IMG/VR virus record: IMGVR_UViG_3300035180_001680 | DNA length: 64,000 bases | Reading direction: 5' to 3' (one strand) | Origin: a virus | Taxonomy: Duplodnaviria > Caudoviricetes | In this document: positions 48,721-63,374 of the stretch, piece after piece | Layout of the letters: each line of letters opens with the position of its first letter | Numbering within the stretch: the stretch's first letter is position 1 | Made by a program: the position numbers and the translations under genes | Notes under the pieces: generated by a model | What the model was told of the DNA's origin: nothing | Database searches by the model: none | What the model saw: only the letters and a program-made list of their open reading frames with translations

Positions 48721-48804
48721 TGGTCCACCCGGAGGGATTCGAACCCTCATAGTCAAAGACGCGAGATTAAAAGTCTCGTACCGTACCAGTTCGGTGTCGG
48801 ATGG
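48721..48804 (-). tRNA. tRNA-Lys(TTT) with 13-nt variable arm
   Basis: CCATCCG/CGGGTGG acceptor, loop CTTTTAA, variable arm CGTCTTTGACTAT, encoded CCA. Confidence 0.85.
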
Positions 48805-48809
48805 AAATA

Positions 48810-48883
48810 TGGTACACCGCCACGGTATTGAGCCGTGTTCTACAGGGTAAGAGCCTATTGCATCACCTTAATGCTTGCGGTGC
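48810..48883 (-). tRNA. tRNA-Lys(CTT)
   Basis: Loop CTCTTAC, encoded CCA. Confidence 0.8.
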
Positions 48884-48892
48884 ATTATATTT

Positions 48893-48967
48893 TGGTAGGG
48901 CGCCTGGAATTCGAATCCAGCCTAAAAGATTAAAAGTCTTCTGTGCTTCCGCTGACACTAACACCCC
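48893..48967 (-). tRNA. tRNA-Lys(TTT)
   Basis: Loop CTTTTAA, short variable loop, encoded CCA. Confidence 0.88.
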
Positions 48968-48982
48968 ATTAAATTCCACTTG

Positions 48983-49067
48983 CTCCGGTCCGAGGAATCG
49001 AACCTCGCCTCCTTTCGGAGCCTTCGCATTAACAGTGCGAGACCTTCACCAAGCCAGTCCGACCGGA
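48983..49067 (-). tRNA. tRNA-Asn(GTT) with 16-nt variable arm
   Basis: Loop CTGTTAA, variable stem CTCC-GAAA-GGAG, G73, no encoded CCA. Confidence 0.85.
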
Positions 49068-49080
49068 GCAAGTGAAACTT

Positions 49081-49154
49081 TGGTAGTCCCTAGAAGAATT
49101 GAACTTCTGTATCTGCCATGTCACGACAGCACTCTACCATTGAGTTAAGGGACT
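49081..49154 (-). tRNA. tRNA-Val(GAC)
   Basis: CTGTC-GTGACAT-GGCAG, encoded CCA. Confidence 0.8.
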
Positions 49155-49174
49155 ATTAAATTTTTAAAGAACAT

Positions 49175-49208
49175 AAAAAAAGCCTCGGGAGATTTCTCTG
49201 CCGAGGCC
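49175..49208 (-). terminator. Attenuator terminator of tRNA array 1
   Basis: GCCTCGG..CCGAGGC followed by T7; 5' arm complementary to GCCGAGGC in the leader ORF. Confidence 0.85.
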
Positions 49209-49227
49209 TATTAACTTTTGTTTACTT

Positions 49228-49329
49228 TCAGATGATTAGTTTGATTTCAACAGTCAATGCCTCGGCGTGTGAACGTTTATTATTAACGTTTACATTATTG
49301 ATAAAAATTGGTTTAGTTGAATCGAACAT
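49228..49329 (-). CDS. Putative leader peptide 1, MFDSTKPIFINNVNVNNKRSHAEALTVEIKLII
   Basis: 33-codon ORF between promoter and terminator; Asn/Val/Lys run. Confidence 0.75.
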   Translation of the reverse strand: MFDSTKPIFINNVNVNNKRSHAEALTVEIKLII

Positions 49330-49365: not shown

Positions 49366-49394
49366 AGTATATATGACTTATTTATGAAAGTCAA
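49366..49394 (-). promoter_or_regulatory. Sigma70 promoter with embedded late-promoter motif
   Basis: TTGACT-ttcATAAATAagtcata-TATACT. Confidence 0.8.
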
Positions 49395-50538: not shown

Positions 50539-50614
50539 TGGTCCCGTCGGTCAGATTCGAACTGACAAAATAATAGTTTAGGAAACTATTGCCTTTCCCT
50601 TTGGCTTCGACGAG
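50539..50614 (-). tRNA. tRNA-Arg(CCT)
   Basis: ATAGT-TTCCTAA-ACTAT, encoded CCA. Confidence 0.8.
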
Positions 50615-52855: not shown

Positions 52856-52927
52856 TGGTCCCCTTGGCCTGAATCGAACAGGCATAAGGTCGCTTAGAAG
52901 GCGTCCCACCACTCCATTGGCAAGGGG
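52856..52927 (-). tRNA. tRNA-Arg(TCT), atypical D-arm
   Basis: Loop CTTCTAA, T-arm AGGCC/GTTCGATT, encoded CCA. Confidence 0.65.
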
Positions 52928-53084
52928 GAATAAAAGTGCATTACTTTAAAGTGTTTTAATTAAACGAATATTTATAATTTGGCGGCGCAAAAGTTAATGA
53001 AAACGTGTTACTATATTTATGCACAAATATTTTTCACATCATTTCCAACTAGAGACAACCGGTATATCTATCTTGTGTGCCAGG

Positions 53085-53168
53085 CGGAAGACGGAGGAAT
53101 CGGACCCCACCCCTTGCGGAGCGTTTCGTTTAGCAAACGAACCTGAACACCAGAACAGTTCATCTTCC
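53085..53168 (-). tRNA. tRNA-Ser(GCT)
   Basis: Loop TTGCTAA, long variable arm, G73. Confidence 0.8.
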
Positions 53169-53173
53169 AATAA

Positions 53174-53443
53174 TTATTCTATTTCATCAACCAATTTGTT
53201 TAACTTAATTCTTTGTTTCTTTCGTTCTTTCCACTTCATGTATGCTTCAAAGCGTCTTTTGTTTCCATGCCGAGTCCCTGGTTTATTCAAAAAATCGTAT
53301 AATATGTTTAACAGTTCAGGGTTTTCCAATTCTTCTTTACCTATCCAAAACGGGTGTTCGGTAGAGCAATCTGTATCTTCCCGATATTGACGTATTGCTC
53401 TTTTGGATTTATTCTTCTCTTTGTGTCTTAATGTGTTAGACAT
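53174..53443 (-). CDS. Hypothetical basic protein
   Basis: ORF inside the tRNA array. Confidence 0.5.
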   Translation of the reverse strand: MSNTLRHKEKNKSKRAIRQYREDTDCSTEHPFWIGKEELENPELLNILYDFLNKPGTRHGNKRRFEAYMKWKERKKQRIKLNKLVDEIE

Positions 53444-53518
53444 AGTTAATAATCTTTAAAAGTTTGTTCTCTCATTGTATTGAATACAAAGACTAATATC
53501 AACATTTGTTTATGATGT

Positions 53519-53590
53519 TGGCCTCCCATGATCGAGTTGAACGATCCAGAATTGATTCGTAGTCAATAAGCTAGTTCCCCTAGATGAGAG
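53519..53590 (-). tRNA. tRNA-Arg(ACG)
   Basis: ATTGA-CTACGAA-TCAAT, encoded CCA; irregular D-arm. Confidence 0.7.
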
Positions 53591-53598
53591 ATAATTTT

Positions 53599-53678
53599 TG
53601 GCGGGTGTGAAGGGAATTGAACCCTCCTGATTTTCCGAAGTGACAGTCCGGTGACCACGCCATGCAGTCCCCACACCC
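53599..53678 (-). tRNA. tRNA-Asp(GTC)
   Basis: Loop CTGTCAC, G73, encoded CCA. Confidence 0.82.
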
Positions 53679-53773
53679 AAAAGTTAAAACAACACACTAC
53701 TACTGTCAGGTTGTTACACACCCTTTCGTCGTCTTCGGTATAGCAGACCGAATGCTATTTGACGGTGTTGATT

Positions 53774-53858
53774 TGGTACCACCGGTTGGAATCGAACCAA
53801 CTTTGAGGTTTCCCTCCAGGATTATCGGTCCTGTGCCTAACCTATCGGCCACAGTGGT
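53774..53858 (-). tRNA. tRNA-Ile(GAT) with 15-nt variable arm and C33
   Basis: CAGGA-CCGATAA-TCCTG, variable stem GAGG-GAAA-CCTC, A73, encoded CCA. Confidence 0.82.
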
Positions 53859-53864
53859 GTTGTT

Positions 53865-53940
53865 TGGTAGGACCAACCGGGTTCGAACCGATGACAGTCT
53901 GCTTGTAGGGCAGATACTCTACCAACTGAGCTATGGTCCC
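53865..53940 (-). tRNA. tRNA-Val(TAC)
   Basis: TCTGC-CCTACAA-GCAGA, encoded CCA. Confidence 0.9.
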
Positions 53941-53964
53941 ATTGAACGATTTCTCGTCCGTTTG

Positions 53965-54342
53965 TTACTTTCTGTGCCTTCGTTTATATAATCGCAATAC
54001 ATCACGCAATTCATTTTTGAAGGAACCATTTTCGCTGTAATATACACAACGACCCAAAGTACCTTTATTCATTCTATATTCCAACGCTTCTACTGACGTT
54101 TCTTCTGGTTGGAACTGTTCCTCCAAACCATAACACGAACAGTGTGATCCATTAACCTCATACAGTATACCGTTTTTCTCATACAACACAAACGCGGATC
54201 CACTATAATCTTCGTACGAATACCAAGCTAATAAGATCTTTTCACCATCATTCAGTTCTATCTGAAATTTGTGTTCAACGTCTTCTACATCACCAAAATT
54301 TCCTAAAAAGTATTGTTTCATCATCATCTCCTTTGTGGTCAA
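53965..54342 (-). CDS. Hypothetical protein
   Basis: YEDYSG.AFVL..YEVNGSHCSCYGLE. Confidence 0.7.
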   Translation of the reverse strand: MTTKEMMMKQYFLGNFGDVEDVEHKFQIELNDGEKILLAWYSYEDYSGSAFVLYEKNGILYEVNGSHCSCYGLEEQFQPEETSVEALEYRMNKGTLGRCVYYSENGSFKNELRDVLRLYKRRHRK

Positions 54343-54383
54343 AAAATCGTTTAACTCATATTAGAGTTCTGTTATTACAATAC

Positions 54384-54460
54384 TGGTACCCTTGGAGAGA
54401 TTCGAACTCCCGACCTTCTCGTTCGAAGCGAGACAATCTAGTCCACTGATATACAAGGGC
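54384..54460 (-). tRNA. tRNA-Arg(TCG)
   Basis: Loop CTTCGAA, encoded CCA. Confidence 0.88.
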
Positions 54461-54651
54461 ATATCAAATCATTATATCCTCAATTTCTTTCTTAAATCTT
54501 GAATCCTTCTATTATACTCAGAAACGTTAATTTCAGCAACGTTGGAAGACTTTTTTATTAGGGCCATTTTTAATTCTGTTTCTAATCTATTCAACTGCCC
54601 ACGCATTTTTGCTACTTTTTATCTTCTTTGCTCATTTTACTTCGTCCTTTT

Positions 54652-54728
54652 TGGCAACCCCGTCGAGAATCGGACTCGAAAAATCAACAAGGGTCAAAAC
54701 CTTGCGTCATCACTAGATGAACGGGGCA
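54652..54728 (-). tRNA. tRNA-Gln(TTG), divergent copy
   Basis: CAAGG-TTTTGAC-CCTTG, G73, encoded CCA; T-loop TCCGATT, ~8-nt variable loop. Confidence 0.7.
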
Positions 54729-54735
54729 TCTGTTT

Positions 54736-54810
54736 TGGCACCGCCGATGGGACTCGAACCCACCTGAATCTCATAGACAGTGAGATGCTCTCCCCGAGAG
54801 CTACGACGGT
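54736..54810 (-). tRNA. tRNA-Asp(GTC), second copy
   Basis: TCTCA-CTGTCTA-TGAGA, encoded CCA. Confidence 0.8.
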
Positions 54811-54823
54811 ATTATACTTCAAA

Positions 54824-54897
54824 TGGCAAGCCCACCAAGAGTTGAACTTGGACTAGAAGATTCAAAATCTTCTGTGCTACCGCTACACCACGGGCCA
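54824..54897 (-). tRNA. tRNA-Gln(TTG)
   Basis: Loop TTTTGAA, U1, G73, encoded CCA. Confidence 0.88.
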
Positions 54898-54905
54898 ATT
54901 AAAGG

Positions 54906-54978
54906 CTAGGAAGTAGAGAATCGAACTCTATACGAATGCGCTCAGAACGCACCACCTCGACCAATCGGCTTCTTCCCA
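54906..54978 (-). tRNA. tRNA-Gln(CTG)
   Basis: Loop TTCTGAG, G73, CCA not fully encoded. Confidence 0.8.
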
Positions 54979-55009
54979 ATATATTTTCAAATTTTTAATG
55001 AACAGTTGT

Positions 55010-55048
55010 AAAACGAAAAACCCAGTCTCTTTTGGAAACTGGGTTTTT
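55010..55048 (-). terminator. Attenuator terminator of tRNA array 2
   Basis: AAAAACCCAGT..ACTGGGTTTTTCGTTTT; 5' arm complementary to GGCTGGGT at the end of the leader ORF. Confidence 0.85.
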
Positions 55049-55071
55049 CTTTTTAAGAATTTAGCTTTATG

Positions 55072-55167
55072 CTATACCCAGCCTCCAGACATAATAATAT
55101 CACTGTCGCGACGTACTTGGCGTCGGCGAATGATACTAATACTCTGTTGTTGTCTGGTTACGAACAT
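55072..55167 (-). CDS. Putative leader peptide 2, MFVTRQQQSISIIRRRQVRRDSDIIMSGGWV
   Basis: 31-codon ORF with AAGGAG RBS between promoter and terminator; codons match the downstream tRNAs. Confidence 0.85.
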   Translation of the reverse strand: MFVTRQQQSISIIRRRQVRRDSDIIMSGGWV

Positions 55168-55325
55168 TTGTAAAGCTCCTTAAATTAAATGGTGTTTACT
55201 ACTTTATCGTCTGCTTAATATACGCTTCTACGCACCCACATATTTCTATGTTTTGTTAGTACCGGGACGTCCTAGCTTTCAACACCTAACTATTTAGTTA
55301 AGCACTTTGCTCAACTGTTGATACA

Positions 55326-55354
55326 AGTATATATGACTTATTTATAAAAGTCAA
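55326..55354 (-). promoter_or_regulatory. Sigma70 promoter with embedded TATAAATA
   Basis: TTGACT-ttTATAAATAagtcata-TATACT; near-identical to 49366..49394. Confidence 0.8.
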
Positions 55355-57147: not shown

Positions 57148-57684
57148 ATGAGAGGGATACTATTGTCCATTTTTTTGTTAGTTACATCTACAGTTTACGC
57201 GGGTTCTGAATACCAAGAAAAACAGAACAATTTACAACAACTTATTGATACAAATAAAAGCTCTATCGATAAACAACGATACTGTTTAGCTGAAACAATA
57301 TATTTTGAAGCTGCAGATTATAAAAAATCACAACTTGCTGTTGCAAACGTAGTAATAAATCGTGTAATAGATTCAGACTATCCTAAAACAGTGTGTGCAG
57401 TTACACATCAAACAACCAAAACTCGGTCCGGAAAGCACGTGTGTCAATTCTCATATCAATGTGATGGGGATAAAGACATAAACACGGAATCTGATAAATG
57501 GGCCAGTGCTCAAGAAATTGCTGCAAGTATTATGCACGCATTTGTAATTCAACAACGTACAGATATAACACACGGTGCTACACATTTTCACGATGAACGA
57601 GTTACACCTTCTTGGGCAGTATCTCCAAGTTTTGTTGAAGTGTTAAAAACAAAGCACCTTACATTTTACAAAGAACGCGATTAA
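57148..57684 (+). CDS. SleB-like cell wall hydrolase (Hydrolase_2)
   Basis: Signal peptide, CLAETIYFEA, VANVVINRV, YPKTVCAV, CQFS, ATHFH. Confidence 0.9.
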   Translation: MRGILLSIFLLVTSTVYAGSEYQEKQNNLQQLIDTNKSSIDKQRYCLAETIYFEAADYKKSQLAVANVVINRVIDSDYPKTVCAVTHQTTKTRSGKHVCQFSYQCDGDKDINTESDKWASAQEIAASIMHAFVIQQRTDITHGATHFHDERVTPSWAVSPSFVEVLKTKHLTFYKERD

Positions 57685-57769
57685 CTACTTGTTTTTAAAG
57701 TCAGTTTCGTAATACCCTTCACCTTTTAGATGAAAGGGTATTCCTTGTGAGATAATTCTCAAAAACGTT
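57652..57769 (+). repeat. 118-bp direct repeat, copy 1
   Basis: Appears identical to 59056..59173. Confidence 0.92.
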
Positions 57770-58704: not shown

Positions 58705-59055
58705 CTTTCGCCATCAGTTGGTGGTATAATGACCACATGAAATTAACAGAATTGAATGAATACTTTGAACCATCTCTGTATGAGATGTCAAACTTTTCCT
58801 CCCGCAATACAGGCCTCCCACCAGGAACTGTTCTCTGAGAACCGAGCCTACAGTATTACCTCACTCAAAATACAGAATCAAAATTAGTCACCCACAGAAT
58901 GGTACCGCGGTATTTGCTATTTGGGGAAACCACTTGGACAATTGATTGTGCTGATATTTTAGACAAACCAGCCCACTAAAAACAACGGTAGTAATGGTGT
59001 ATGATCCGACAGAGTATACGGAGTTGATCACGTTCATCTCCGAAGCCATTGAACC

Positions 59056-59173
59056 AAGCACCTTACATTTTACAAAGAACGCGATTAACTACTTGTTTTT
59101 AAAGTCAGTTTCGTAATACCCTTCACCTTTTAGATGAAAGGGTATTCCTTGTGAGATAATTCTCAAAAACGTT
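59056..59173 (+). repeat. 118-bp direct repeat, copy 2
   Basis: See copy 1. Confidence 0.92.
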
Positions 59174-59461: not shown

Positions 59462-60424
59462 TTATAGATGTTCAACAGCACCTTTGGAAAGTCCTTCGCT
59501 AACATAAATTTCTCGTGCTCCAAGGACTTTCAATTTCGTACTATAATATTGCTTAATATACGCAGCTAAAAACTCAACGGTTGTTTCAGTAGGAAGAACT
59601 ACAACTTTATGATAATCAGTGTTCAGTGTCATTTTGAAACGTCCACGCTGTTCGGTTGAATAACCAATCACTATTTCGTTGGGTGTAATTGATAATACGT
59701 TATCTTTACGAACAAACACTGTGTTGTCCAACTCTTTAGCAATTTCACACAATTCATCATATACCAAACTATTATAACTTACGTTATCGGTATGGATAAA
59801 CGAACGATGACCATGAGCAATGTTTTGACAACCAAACGATGTTGAATCTTTTAATCCGTGAACGTAGTGAAATGTGGCTGTAGCAACCATAATGTCAATT
59901 AAATGTTTATCCACATTATTAAAACATTGAACCTTTACATTAATATCTGGATACTTTGTTTGTAGATATGTTTGAACGTGTCGTCGAAAAGCATCACCAA
60001 TATAGTAGACACTGTATTCTGAATTTGTGTTCATTTTTTGTTCTATGACTCGAACAGCGTCTTTTGCCAAAATTAAAGTCATATTTGGTGTTACAATTGT
60101 AACAACATCGTCGGAACTATCATCAATAGAGACAACGTTCGAATATCCTTCAATTATCCACAATTTATGATCAAAACCATTTTTGTGTATATCAAATTCG
60201 TGTTTATCAATAGCAGTTTTAATATCTTTTTTAATAGTGGAAAAGTCTACAACGACTTTTTCTGTTGGGTCAGGACGACCAGATACGATAAAACTGGGAT
60301 TGAAAGACCCACCTTTAACACAGCCTTCGTTATCAATATAGGCGTGATCAACAACGGTTAAATTGTTGAGAAACATTGTTGATGATTCTGGTTCTTTGAA
60401 ACTATCTGGGATTTGTGTTATCAT
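59462..60424 (-). CDS. queD: 6-carboxytetrahydropterin synthase-like (long, two-domain QueD)
   Basis: VVDFSTIKK..GFDHKLW; HGLK..GCQNIAHGHRS; ETTVEFLA. Confidence 0.75.
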   Translation of the reverse strand: MITQIPDSFKEPESSTMFLNNLTVVDHAYIDNEGCVKGGSFNPSFIVSGRPDPTEKVVVDFSTIKKDIKTAIDKHEFDIHKNGFDHKLWIIEGYSNVVSIDDSSDDVVTIVTPNMTLILAKDAVRVIEQKMNTNSEYSVYYIGDAFRRHVQTYLQTKYPDINVKVQCFNNVDKHLIDIMVATATFHYVHGLKDSTSFGCQNIAHGHRSFIHTDNVSYNSLVYDELCEIAKELDNTVFVRKDNVLSITPNEIVIGYSTEQRGRFKMTLNTDYHKVVVLPTETTVEFLAAYIKQYYSTKLKVLGAREIYVSEGLSKGAVEHL

Positions 60425-60474
60425 TTTTTCTCCAATTTAATTGTTGTAGAATTATACAACAATTTTAAAATATT

Positions 60475-61437
60475 TTAAACATATATTTGACTAACAGACT
60501 GCTTGGACCTCATTCTTCGTATAGTTTCTGCAACCAAATCACTAATTGATAATTGTCTGATGTTATTTGGAATATTGCCTATTAGTGGAATTGTATCTGT
60601 TACTACTAATTCGTCTAACACTGAATGAGTTAAATTCTCGTAAGCATTATCTGATAAGACAGGGTGAGTGGCATAAGCGACAACTTTAAGAGCACCATGG
60701 TCCTTTAAAGATTTCGCAGCCTTACATAAAGTTCCAGCTGTATCTACAATATCATCAACCATAATACAAACTTTTCCCTCTACGTCACCGATGATGTTCA
60801 TAACTTCTGATTCACCAGCTCGTGGGCGACGTTTATCAACGATAGCTAATTGAGTGTCACCGTTTAACTGTTCTGCAATTTGTCTAGAACGTAACACTCC
60901 ACCAATATCAGGAGAAACAACCATAAGTGTTTTTTCTTCTTTTTCTTTACGATACATCATTCTGATATCTTTAATGAATTCAACGGAAGCGGAAATGTTA
61001 GTAAAGGGAATCGTAAAAAACCCTTGTTGTTGAAGAGAATGAATATCAACCGATACTAAATGGTCAATACCAGCTGCTTGAATCACATCTGCTACAAGAC
61101 GGGAAGTAATTGGTCCACGGCTAAATCCTGGACGCCTATCTTGTCTGGAATATCCATAATAAGGAACAACCGCAATAATGCGTTTTGCAGCAGCTCTTCT
61201 TAATGCGTCTGTCATTGTCAACAATTCCATTAAATTGTCGTTAACAGGATTGCACGTTGACTGAATAACAAATACAACACTTCCTCTAACTGACTCTTCA
61301 ATTTCAACAGATGTTTCACCGTCTTTGAACTTACTTACTTTAGCCTTACCAAGTGCTAACCCCATCCTACTTGCTATCTTTGTGGCAAATTCAATATTTG
61401 AATTTCCAGCGAAAATCTTAACATTTGAAAGAGACAC
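60475..61437 (-). CDS. prs: Ribose-phosphate pyrophosphokinase
   Basis: F.DGE, PYYGYSRQDR, VSPDIGG, VDKRR, VDDIVDTAGT; GTG start inferred. Confidence 0.95.
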   Translation of the reverse strand: MSLSNVKIFAGNSNIEFATKIASRMGLALGKAKVSKFKDGETSVEIEESVRGSVVFVIQSTCNPVNDNLMELLTMTDALRRAAAKRIIAVVPYYGYSRQDRRPGFSRGPITSRLVADVIQAAGIDHLVSVDIHSLQQQGFFTIPFTNISASVEFIKDIRMMYRKEKEEKTLMVVSPDIGGVLRSRQIAEQLNGDTQLAIVDKRRPRAGESEVMNIIGDVEGKVCIMVDDIVDTAGTLCKAAKSLKDHGALKVVAYATHPVLSDNAYENLTHSVLDELVVTDTIPLIGNIPNNIRQLSISDLVAETIRRMRSKQSVSQIYV

Positions 61438-61551
61438 ATTTTCACCTATATTTGTGTGAGTTGTTTCGTAAAATATCAATACCAACATAAATCAATACTA
61501 CAGAAGGAAGCCTGATAGTTAGTATCAGGACACTCCATATAAGTCACTCAT

Positions 61552-62433
61552 TTAAGTTCCAATTGCATTCTTAAATACAGGAACATGCACTCTATAACAG
61601 AATGTATACCCTTTTTCAATACACATATTAGCAACAGTCGCCGCTATGTTTGTTTGTTGCTCTTCAGTACACGCGGTTGGCATAATTAGAACATTATTTA
61701 GTTGAACAACACCAGCATCCCAATAAACCTTCATCGCTCGTTCAACTTCATCAAAATCTTCTGCATCTGCATCACACACAAATTTGAAATATTGTTCAGC
61801 ACGCTTTACTCTTTGTTGCGCTAACGCGACCTCTGGTTTAATCGCATCTTCCCATTTTTCTCCACTTGCCCGGAGTTTTGGTGAATTGGCAAATGTGATC
61901 TTTCGTCCAGGTTTCCACCACGAATTTAGTAAATTAATGAAATCATCACGTATAGGAACTGAACAATTTGTTTCAATTAATAGATGTTTACAATCGTCCA
62001 TCTTTGGATGATTTAACAAAGCAGAAAGTTGTTTTTGACGGAGAGTTGGTTCTCCACCTGTTAAACTCAAGATGACTGGTTGTCCAGTTACAGGATGAAC
62101 CCAAGATTTGTGGGGAATAGTATCTAATACAGCATCAATTAATTGTTCCTCATTTCCAGACTGCCACAAATGAGCAAAACGATTGTCCCAAGCATAAATG
62201 CTATCACACCCAAGAGTAATTGGTGGTAGTTCTTTTAATGTTTTAAATTTTGTGGGGTCAAATCCTAACCCTGTGTTTGTTTCGGTATCTATGTGGGTTG
62301 GATTATTAAAACCTTTACACATAAAGTTGCACTTTGTGAATCGGATATATGCTGTTGGTACACCAGCATAAGGTCCTTCACCTTCTATTGAAGTAAAAAC
62401 TTCACTCCACTCAAACTTTGCCATTTTCGTCAA
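61552..62433 (-). CDS. queE: 7-carboxy-7-deazaguanine synthase (radical SAM)
   Basis: EVFTSIEGEG..IRFTKCNFMC..CDS, LTGGEP, IETN, SPKL. Confidence 0.88.
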   Translation of the reverse strand: MTKMAKFEWSEVFTSIEGEGPYAGVPTAYIRFTKCNFMCKGFNNPTHIDTETNTGLGFDPTKFKTLKELPPITLGCDSIYAWDNRFAHLWQSGNEEQLIDAVLDTIPHKSWVHPVTGQPVILSLTGGEPTLRQKQLSALLNHPKMDDCKHLLIETNCSVPIRDDFINLLNSWWKPGRKITFANSPKLRASGEKWEDAIKPEVALAQQRVKRAEQYFKFVCDADAEDFDEVERAMKVYWDAGVVQLNNVLIMPTACTEEQQTNIAATVANMCIEKGYTFCYRVHVPVFKNAIGT

Positions 62434-62671
62434 TCTCCTCTTGTAATCGATCTATTTTAGCTTGAAAATAAAAAGTTAAAAACGACAGTATGGGATATAA
62501 TACAGTTACTAACCAAAAAAACCCTGCTATCAACAATTCCACTGTAGTAATTCCTTTAGTACAGTCAATTTCCAAGAACATGAATTTCAAAGAAAGGATA
62601 GATATTATCATTAATAAAACGAATTCAAAGCTGTGACGTTTCCATGTTTGTAAAAAAGCTACTTTCAACAT
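62411..62671 (-). CDS. Small two-TM membrane protein
   Basis: Two hydrophobic segments. Confidence 0.55.
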   Translation of the reverse strand: MLKVAFLQTWKRHSFEFVLLMIISILSLKFMFLEIDCTKGITTVELLIAGFFWLVTVLYPILSFLTFYFQAKIDRLQEEIDENGKV

Positions 62672-62673
62672 TG

Positions 62674-63027
62674 TTATACCCCAATTTCATATAACGCGTG
62701 GCGAATAAAACTAGCAAGTTTTTTGTGGAATACTGATGATTGTACTTGACCTGACAAATCAACATATTCAACAATTAACACCTCATCTTCATCATATACA
62801 ACTTCAGGATTTACTGCTATTAAAATACCAAGTTCGTGATCTGTAACATCAACTGCGATAATTTGTTGGTTAACACCAATGTCTGGAGCTGTAATATATT
62901 CGAGGTTATGGTGTTCCATAGTTGCTATCATATCTCGAACAATTATTAAAATGTCAGAAGATATTTTTTCCACCTTTTCTATCTTTGGTGGTATATCACT
63001 TATTGCTACAAGTTCTTTTATTGACAT
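62674..63027 (-). CDS. Degenerate peptide deformylase-like protein
   Basis: DMIATM..APDIGVNQQIIAVD..NPEV; EGCLS absent and HExxH altered to RHALYE. Confidence 0.65.
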   Translation of the reverse strand: MSIKELVAISDIPPKIEKVEKISSDILIIVRDMIATMEHHNLEYITAPDIGVNQQIIAVDVTDHELGILIAVNPEVVYDEDEVLIVEYVDLSGQVQSSVFHKKLASFIRHALYEIGV

Positions 63028-63176
63028 AATATTGTTCTCCATTATAGTTATATTTGTAAAGTATTTATTATAAGAGATTATACCAGATGTTAAATTTGAA
63101 GACAACTGAATTAAAAGGCTGGAACGTTGGAGAGATACAGGCTCTCAGTTCCGTTACTTTCCTGTAACGTAAAATT

Positions 63177-63250: not shown

Positions 63251-63259
63251 AAAATCTAG

Positions 63260-63374
63260 TGTTGTTGGATGGACTCGAACCATCGGCGAACGTTTTATCT
63301 GCAGCGTTGCGGTCCTTTACCGGGGGCTACACCCTCGAGCAGACGTTATCTCTAACCAACTGATATACAACAAC
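63260..63374 (-). tRNA. tRNA-like gene with a 42-nt structured insertion in the anticodon loop
   Basis: GTTGTTG/CAACAAC acceptor, CAGTTGGTTAGAG D-arm, GATGG-TTCGAGT-CCATC T-arm, AACGT/ACGTT anticodon stem enclosing 49 nt. Confidence 0.75.

Follow-up and report, generated by a model that had tools for sequence, protein, structure and literature searches.

A putative leader-peptide attenuator ahead of a phage tRNA operon, one of four such cassettes in the genome

Introduction

Attenuation of transcription by translation of a leader peptide is a textbook mechanism, known from trpL, hisL and pheL, from the multivalent leaders of ilvGMEDA (Ile, Leu and Val) and thr (Thr and Ile), and from pheST. 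The reasons why phages carry tRNA genes have been debated for decades; the proposals include codon compensation, evasion of defences that cleave tRNAs, and substitution for host tRNAs that have been degraded. To our knowledge, the regulation of phage tRNA genes has hardly been addressed. Here we analysed a window of 64,000 nt that forms part of the IMG/VR record IMGVR_UViG_3300035180_001680 of an uncultured giant phage (178,796 bp, 36.5% G+C, estimated to be about half complete). In this window a promoter, a short open reading frame (ORF) and an intrinsic terminator precede a tRNA array, array 2. Their arrangement suggests strongly that they form a ribosome-mediated attenuator, and the record holds four paralogous cassettes of this kind, designated A to D. 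Array 2 belongs to cassette C and array 1 to cassette D, while cassettes A and B lie past the end of the window.

Like the leaders of ilvGMEDA, thr, trpL, hisL and pheL, the phage cassettes carry a promoter-proximal short ORF that is rich in regulatory codons. As in ilvGMEDA and thr, an antiterminator and a terminator are mutually exclusive, the position of the ribosome would decide between them, and several amino acids are sampled by each leader. Unlike ilvGMEDA and thr, the phage cassettes would control tRNA genes and not biosynthetic enzymes, and the product itself would relieve the stall. A single leader samples up to 8–9 amino acids, and the four together sample all 20; the cassettes are phage-encoded, a boxA-like site follows, and the antiterminator arm lies within the ORF. 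The Rfam models Thr_leader (RF00506) and His_leader (RF00514) gave sub-threshold scores (27.1, 25.6 and 29.8 bits, the cut-offs being 55 and 49), at best ~27 against 55 for Thr_leader and ~30 against 49 for His_leader. As these scores are far below threshold, the cassettes are analogues in design and not members of either family, and the resemblance is one of shape only.

In pheST (the pheM leader) and in the actinobacterial leuS leader, attenuation likewise acts on a gene of the translation machinery, and the leader codons are cognate to the tRNA that the product serves. Those leaders regulate an aminoacyl-tRNA synthetase and respond to a single amino acid, whereas the phage cassettes would control tRNA genes in blocks. 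T-boxes share with them transcription attenuation that is set by the state of specific tRNAs. However, a T-box needs neither ribosome nor ORF and makes direct contact with uncharged tRNA, whereas the ribosome-binding site (RBS), the ATG and the in-frame codon run of the phage leaders point to translation. At E <= 1 or 0.5 the T-box covariance model matched none of the four leader regions; lacking a model match, and with an RBS and an ORF present, the T-box riboswitch was rejected as a candidate. The likeness to boxA/Nus antitermination in rrn operons lies in a box that resembles rrnB boxA and heads a long untranslated RNA operon; the phage box differs in that it belongs to a tRNA operon and lies downstream of an attenuator, and binding of NusB/NusE to it is putative.

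What would be new is the tRNA-gene target, the direct product feedback, the breadth of amino acids, the phage setting and the coupling to boxA, the class of mechanism itself being known. An earlier note on this DNA, made from the sequence alone, had stated that no attenuator controlling tRNA arrays was known to have been described. Our literature search likewise found none: leader-peptide control of tRNA genes was not found in published full text, a search that left most subscription journals outside, and it is not covered by a 2021 catalogue of upstream-ORF motifs.

Results

Anatomy of cassette C

The features of cassette C are listed in Table 1; like those of cassette D, they all lie on the minus strand. 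The promoter, the AAGGAG RBS, the 31-codon ORF, the terminator and the tRNA genes follow one another in the order, and at the positions, that the earlier note had given. Between promoter and terminator the leader is the sole ORF with an ATG start (55167–55072), and its start context, TTTACAAATG (TTTACAA(A)ATG), is common to all four cassettes. The RNA from leader to terminator folds at -56 kcal/mol, with z = -7.3 relative to dinucleotide shuffles, and the 5' arm of the terminator is also the partner strand of the antiterminator. A simple terminator scanner misses the attenuator terminators of both cassette C and cassette D, in cassette C because A–U pairs of the hairpin consume the T run.

The 5' untranslated region (UTR) between the cassette C promoter and the leader (55170–55325) measures 154 nt, as compared with 31 nt in a co-occurring relative seen in three metagenomes, so that the difference reflects either an insertion in cassette C or a deletion in the relative. 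The first 60 nt of the long UTR are common to cassette B.

Table 1. Features of cassettes C and D with their tRNA genes, and the match of each leader to its own array. 'In own set' counts the leader residues that belong to the amino acids served by the array.
Feature	Position	Strand	Remarks
Cassette A			Array Tyr, Cys, Leu, Gly, Ser; leader run GLGYCLSLGSLS; in own set 15/30
Cassette B			Array Pro, Ala, Glu, Phe, Thr, His, Trp, Met; leader run FTTFFTAFTTPEAWHAPEMA; in own set 24/31
Cassette C (array 2)			Array Gln, Asp, Arg, Val, Ile, Ser; leader run RQQQSISIIRRRQVRRDSDII; in own set 24/30
Cassette D (array 1)			Array Val, Asn, Lys; leader run NNVNVNNK; in own set 11/32
Cassette C promoter	55326-55354	minus	Sigma-70-type, TTGACT-17-TATACT; 10/12 consensus matches
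Cassette C Shine-Dalgarno AAGGAG	55176-55181	minus	8 nt upstream of leader ATG
Cassette C leader ORF	55072-55167	minus	31 codons; coordinates include the stop codon
Cassette C regulatory codons	55093-55155	minus	Codons 5-25 (Arg, Gln, Ser-AGT, Ile, Val-GTA, Asp)
Cassette C antiterminator 5' arm	55075-55086	minus	Codons 28-31; ends at the stop codon
Cassette C intrinsic terminator	55010-55049	minus	15-bp stem, 5-nt loop, U tract; stem 55049-55015
Cassette C boxA-like box	54989-55004	minus	TGTTCATTAAAAATTT; between terminator and first tRNA
Array 2	52856-54978	minus	9 tRNAs by ARAGORN default (Gln-CTG, Gln-TTG, Asp-GTC, Arg-TCG, Val-TAC, Ile-GAT, Asp-GTC, Arg-ACG, Arg-TCT); small protein ORFs between tRNAs
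Gln-TTG copy 2 (array 2, weak)	54652-54728	minus	ARAGORN relaxed threshold only; unreported by Infernal
Ser-GCT (array 2, weak)	53083-53168	minus	ARAGORN relaxed threshold only; Infernal 36.7 bits, tRNA-Sec model
Arg-CCT tRNA	50539-50614	minus	Separated from array 2 by neither a cassette nor a convincing terminator
Cassette D promoter	49366-49394	minus	As in cassette C
Cassette D leader	49228-49329	minus	33 codons
Cassette D antiterminator 5' arm	49247-49267	minus	Codons 21-28; -25.2 kcal/mol; 0/2000 shuffles as good
Cassette D intrinsic terminator	49175-49209	minus
Cassette D boxA-like box	49158-49173	minus
Array 1	48721-49154	minus	Val-GAC, Asn-GTT, Lys-TTT, Lys-CTT, Lys-TTT

Four leaders match four arrays

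The 29-nt promoter block is present in four copies in the 178,796-bp record, all on one strand and each ahead of a tRNA array. Every copy is followed by an RBS, the common start context, an ORF of 31–33 codons, an intrinsic terminator, a 16-nt box and the first tRNA.

Codons 5–25 of leader C form an unbroken run of 21 that array 2 can decode under standard wobble, and each of the nine anticodon types of the array has a cognate codon in the leader; both of these claims of the earlier note hold. Given the codon usage of the phage, the chance of such a run is ~5e-13, and leader C ranked first among 527 small ORFs of the genome.

The leader ORFs are set by their position and were not picked, and the comparison of four leaders with four arrays is therefore the main evidence that a leader tracks its array. 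At the amino-acid level the resulting 4 x 4 matrix is diagonal, with a combined P of 3e-11 (binomial, Fisher). Leaders A, B and C have only 2–10 residues in the sets of other arrays. Leader D has 12 residues in each of the larger B and C sets, above its own 11, and stands out only relative to its small own set and through its run. Allowing at most one miss, the longest windows span 14 codons in A, 21 in B, 23 in C and 9 in D (each P <= 1e-4 in simulations). Counted by codon, matches to the own array number 14/30 in A, 20/31 in B, 23/30 in C and 10/32 in D. The enrichment is confined to the frame of the ORF; the other two frames are at background (10/30 each for leader C) and contain stops. Taking the four cassettes together, each of the 20 amino acids is represented in a leader whose own array carries the cognate tRNA.

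Antiterminator and terminator are alternative folds

According to the earlier note, a segment just before the leader stop pairs with the 5' arm of the terminator. The pairing was recovered: GGAGGCUGGGU (55086–55076) forms a 10-bp duplex with that arm at -15.4 kcal/mol, as compared with -7.1 +/- 2.0 kcal/mol for shuffles (p = 0.0005). When the 3' arm of the terminator was omitted from the folds, the 3' part of the ORF paired with the terminator 5' arm in all four leaders. The duplex was assessed against 2000 shuffles of the upstream 92 nt in eight cassettes, four in this record, three in the related contig G001 and one in G002 (described below). It was significant in all eight, with individual p values of <0.0005 to 0.02 and a Fisher combined P of 3e-14. 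In the full-length fold the antiterminator arm is also partly held by an upstream segment, in a pairing of the 1:2 type.

The effect of a ribosome was modelled by imposing a 28-nt footprint on the fold. In cassette C, a ribosome on codons 5–20 left the antiterminator intact, while a ribosome at the stop codon abolished it and freed the terminator. For cassette C, folding of the leader with ribosome-covered segments, which had been proposed as a check, thus gave the switch expected from the attenuator model. The locus has the geometry of a ribosome-mediated attenuator in every respect that the sequence can predict, namely RBS and ORF, codon enrichment, terminator and antiterminator, in agreement with the earlier note.

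Conservation in related phages

Related IMG/VR contigs were reached by alignment of a conserved neighbour gene whose homologues in GenBank phages are annotated as QueD-like; a Pfam domain was not found in this gene. Contig G001 (IMGVR_UViG_3300020048_000168), with proteins 35–76% identical to those of the window, carries orthologues of cassettes A, B and C in which the promoter is unchanged, and contig G002 (IMGVR_UViG_3300035180_001563) carries an orthologue of cassette B. The antiterminator is significant in each of these orthologues. Their alignments revealed double compensatory changes in both helices. Among these, in the antiterminator, G–C is replaced by A–U in families A and C, and C–G by U–A in family B; in the terminator of family C, A–U is replaced by C–G and U–A by G–C.

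In the regulatory parts of the leaders, 17 of the 25 variable columns hold residues of the own set only, and the swaps within a set include radical ones (F/E, T/H, I/D, S/Q and G/C). The peptides diverge mostly within the set of the array, which is the pattern expected if selection acts on the tRNA that is called and not on the peptide. Strain variants of leader C in three other metagenomes show a synonymous change, GTA>GTG, and a CGA>CAA change that replaces Arg with Gln, both of which are in the set. The G001 array has an extra Ser-TGA and its leader has more TCN codons, yet the leader in the window also has one TCT. The comparison of related phages suggested in the earlier note favours the attenuator: the stems compensate and substitutions fall mostly within the set, although co-variation between leader and array was not established among relatives that are few and near-identical in array content.

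A more distant and complete phage of 310 kb, G006, has a single cassette upstream of 24 tRNAs. The promoter of this cassette differs, its ORF runs to 85 codons, and a terminator and a box are present. Its antiterminator comprises 10 bp (p = 0.002); so long an ORF and so complete an array do not lend themselves to a comparison of composition. Megablast of the region against GenBank phages gave no match, and a distant blastn search with the tRNA array gave single-tRNA matches in unrelated phages and nothing more. The promoter pattern was not found in metagenome contigs, and a 125-aa ORF within the array, used as a query, revealed no close relatives.

In the Vibrio phages nt-1, KVP40, phi-Grn1, D482, F86 and 1.081.O we observed a conserved ORF of 37–38 codons with an RBS, which ends just before an intrinsic terminator directly upstream of the main tRNA array of ~27 genes (in nt-1, NC_021529.2, ~97820–97935, minus strand). 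The ORF is unannotated in the KVP40 record. Its peptide contains 18–19 of the 20 kinds of amino acid, as compared with 16.1 +/- 1.3 in random 37-mers. The region of its stop can pair with the 5' arm of the terminator, a pairing that was not significant relative to shuffles in five of the six phages. This ORF may be a cultured counterpart of the cassettes, possibly related to them.

A boxA-like box follows each terminator

In 179 kb, the pattern TGTT[CA][AT]TTAA[AC]AATTT is confined to the four cassettes, with 0.01 occurrences expected per strand. The boxes resemble the Escherichia coli rrnB boxA region, TGCTCTTTAACAATTT (PMC2176067), and those of G001 and G006 share exact stretches of 13–14 nt with rrnB boxA. 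A match to the boxA consensus is thus found at the head of an untranslated RNA operon. An internal promoter was rejected as the meaning of the box, its -10 elements being poor as against the 13–14-nt identity to boxA. By analogy with rrn operons, read-through transcripts would probably recruit the Nus-factor antitermination complex of the host at this site, and antitermination of the Nus type would suit a long untranslated tRNA operon. It would also point to a proteobacterial host.

The tRNA genes and their surroundings

The earlier note counted 11 tRNAs in array 2. Nine of these are firm with ARAGORN at its default setting, while the second copy of Gln-TTG and Ser-GCT are weak calls (Table 1). 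The second Gln-TTG, of which the D arm is poor and the T loop odd, may be a decaying duplicate. Arg-CCT is possibly the last tRNA of the array 2 transcription unit. Of the codons of the phage, 88.5% are readable by the array tRNAs.

Singleton tRNAs in the record (Gly-GCC, a tRNA with a CTA anticodon, Ser-TGA and a Met/Gly/Pro/Thr group) were found to have no leader cassette. The CTA-anticodon tRNA (G000:C1:46568-46641, outside the window) has a TTGACA-17-TAATAT promoter of its own, would read the UAG stop and was labelled Pyl by ARAGORN. An ARAGORN intron search gave anticodon-loop insertions in Ser-CGA (31 nt; 63259–63374, minus strand), in Tyr-GTA, the first gene of array A (33 nt; G000:C1:37395-37513), and in Leu-TAA (235 nt; G000:C1:9390-9709). 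Phage tRNA genes with short intervening sequences are unusual.

Between arrays B and C (59462–63105, minus strand) lie a QueD-like gene, so named from the annotation of its homologues in Vibrio phages; a phosphoribosyl pyrophosphate synthetase (Pfam PF13793 and PF14572); a 293-aa ORF resembling QueE, unconfirmed and without a match in the Pfam search; and a short gene resembling peptide deformylase (PF01327). Genes for nucleotide/queuosine-type metabolism and translation thus surround the tRNA arrays. A 122-nt direct repeat, 99% identical (57648–57769 and 59052–59173), flanks a 1.4-kb segment whose ORFs lie on the strand opposite to that of their neighbours. The repeat is the duplicated 3' end of a 63-aa zinc-ribbon-like ORF, and the segment looks like an insertion or duplication scar.

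Discussion

Proposed mechanism

From the layout of the cassettes, the statistics, the competing folds and the conservation described above, we conclude, with a probability of about 0.8, that cassette C is a ribosome-mediated leader-peptide transcription attenuator controlling a phage tRNA operon, one of four in the genome. We infer from this arrangement that the leader is translated and that termination depends on its translation; which way the switch works, what the boxA-like box does and what the natural trigger is are likewise parts of the model set out here.

Host RNA polymerase would start at the strong sigma-70-type promoter, and a ribosome would translate the 31-codon leader. When codons 5–25 are read fast, the ribosome would reach codons 28–31 and the stop and cover the 5' arm of the antiterminator. 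With the arm covered, the terminator hairpin would form 22 nt downstream and transcription would end before the tRNAs. If charged tRNA were scarce for any of the test codons, the ribosome would stall upstream and the arm would pair with the 5' arm of the terminator. Polymerase would then read through, pass the boxA-like site and transcribe the tRNAs. The products decode the test codons, and the outcome would thus be a negative, self-limiting feedback loop on decoding speed, with all 20 amino acids tested jointly by the four cassettes. Candidate triggers are cleavage of host tRNAs by defence nucleases, depletion after host shut-off, the codon demand of the phage and starvation.

We put forward a wider interpretation only tentatively. 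The phage may hold a near-complete private tRNA pool under closed-loop control, with each operon induced by slow decoding of its own codons. The arrays might then be an inducible countermeasure to cleavage by anticodon nucleases or to depletion after host shut-off, switched off once decoding recovers, with an rrn-like boxA carrying the polymerase.

Evidence against the attenuator and rival explanations

Several observations weigh against control by attenuation. Enrichment over the whole length of the leader is moderate for A (binomial P = 0.007) and D (P = 0.03). The antiterminator arm of cassettes A, B and D spans roughly codons 20–28, with the stop 5–10 codons beyond it. A ribosome terminating there would sit inside the antiterminator loop, and in the simple footprint model the antiterminator still forms. 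The OFF state of these three cassettes would therefore rest on sterics and on kinetics or timing. A weak promoter-like match (9/12) between the cassette C terminator and the first tRNA is a possible bypass. The G001 leader has four CGC codons, and Arg-ACG was not found in the part of its array that was examined. The related contigs found number only three, and the sequencing runs containing the phage, from sediment and microbial-mat metagenomes, were all of DNA, with no RNA run among them. Finally, with all cassettes pooled and the orthologue B' entered out of frame, the excess of strict-wobble codons beyond the amino-acid match was not significant (110 as compared with 106.8 expected, P = 0.25). 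The misses in this test are mostly NNT or NNC codons of U34 tRNAs, and a modified U34 may read them.

The result of the pooled test bears on a reading in which the switch is the same but its natural input is amino-acid starvation or general translation stress instead of tRNA supply. Stalling depends on charged tRNA, so starvation would give the same signal, and the robust match is that at the amino-acid level. Codon choice was different, however, where isoacceptors are split between arrays (Ser, Ile and Val). There, leader codons match their own array in 17 of 21 cases, as compared with 11.3 expected (P = 0.004): for Ser, leader C has three AGT codons and leader A three TCN codons; Ile is encoded by ATY in C and by ATA in A, and Val by GTA in C and, for the most part, by GTT in D. 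An amino-acid sensor would have no reason to follow the anticodons of its array in this way, and the pattern argues, if only modestly, for a sensor of tRNA species and against one of amino acids. Across the cassettes the match is nonetheless, as a general rule, one of amino acids, with codon specificity significant only for the split-isoacceptor amino acids. More tRNA is of no use when the amino acid itself is missing, and a coupling of starvation to tRNA genes would therefore be purposeless. We regard starvation as an unlikely natural input.

The remaining alternatives dispense with the switch or turn it round. Phage genomes commonly contain intrinsic terminators and small ORFs, and RNA runs for this phage were not found, so the ORFs might be functional micropeptides or untranslated, the hairpins partial terminators or processing signals, and nothing would be sensed. 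This is very improbable, given that four leaders match four different arrays in a single frame only, that the orthologous peptides change radically yet stay within the set of the array, and that a plain terminator would not need the antiterminator that is significant in 8/8 cassettes. Just as improbable is a reversed, pyrBI-like logic, in which a ribosome close to the terminator blocks it, so that fast decoding turns the operon on and stalling turns it off. Ribosomes that terminate translation near a terminator do repress it, but only at short distances, termination being near its maximum beyond ~18–30 bp (PMC4824070). The leader stops lie 18–28 nt upstream of the terminator stems, where repression is weak or gone, and no leader ORF enters the hairpin; on these grounds blocking of the pyrBI type was rejected. 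Moreover, the conserved complementarity between leader and terminator arm would be left without a role, and positive feedback on tRNA supply makes little sense. That the codon match arose by chance could be argued for a single 31-codon ORF, which might be a post hoc pick. It is hardly credible for position-defined ORFs in four independent tests with a combined P of ~3e-11, with leader C first of 527 small ORFs and the design kept in relatives.

Implications

If translation-controlled attenuation does govern these operons, it would extend attenuation from amino-acid and synthetase genes to tRNA genes, with a direct product-feedback loop, and would provide synthetic biology with compact sensors of tRNA availability that can be programmed. 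Cultured KVP40-like Vibrio phages could serve as a test system. For the phage, it would mean that decoding speed is gauged by codon class and that tRNAs are supplied on demand. The sequence of each leader would state the shortages that are expected, and the question of why phages carry tRNAs would therefore become testable.

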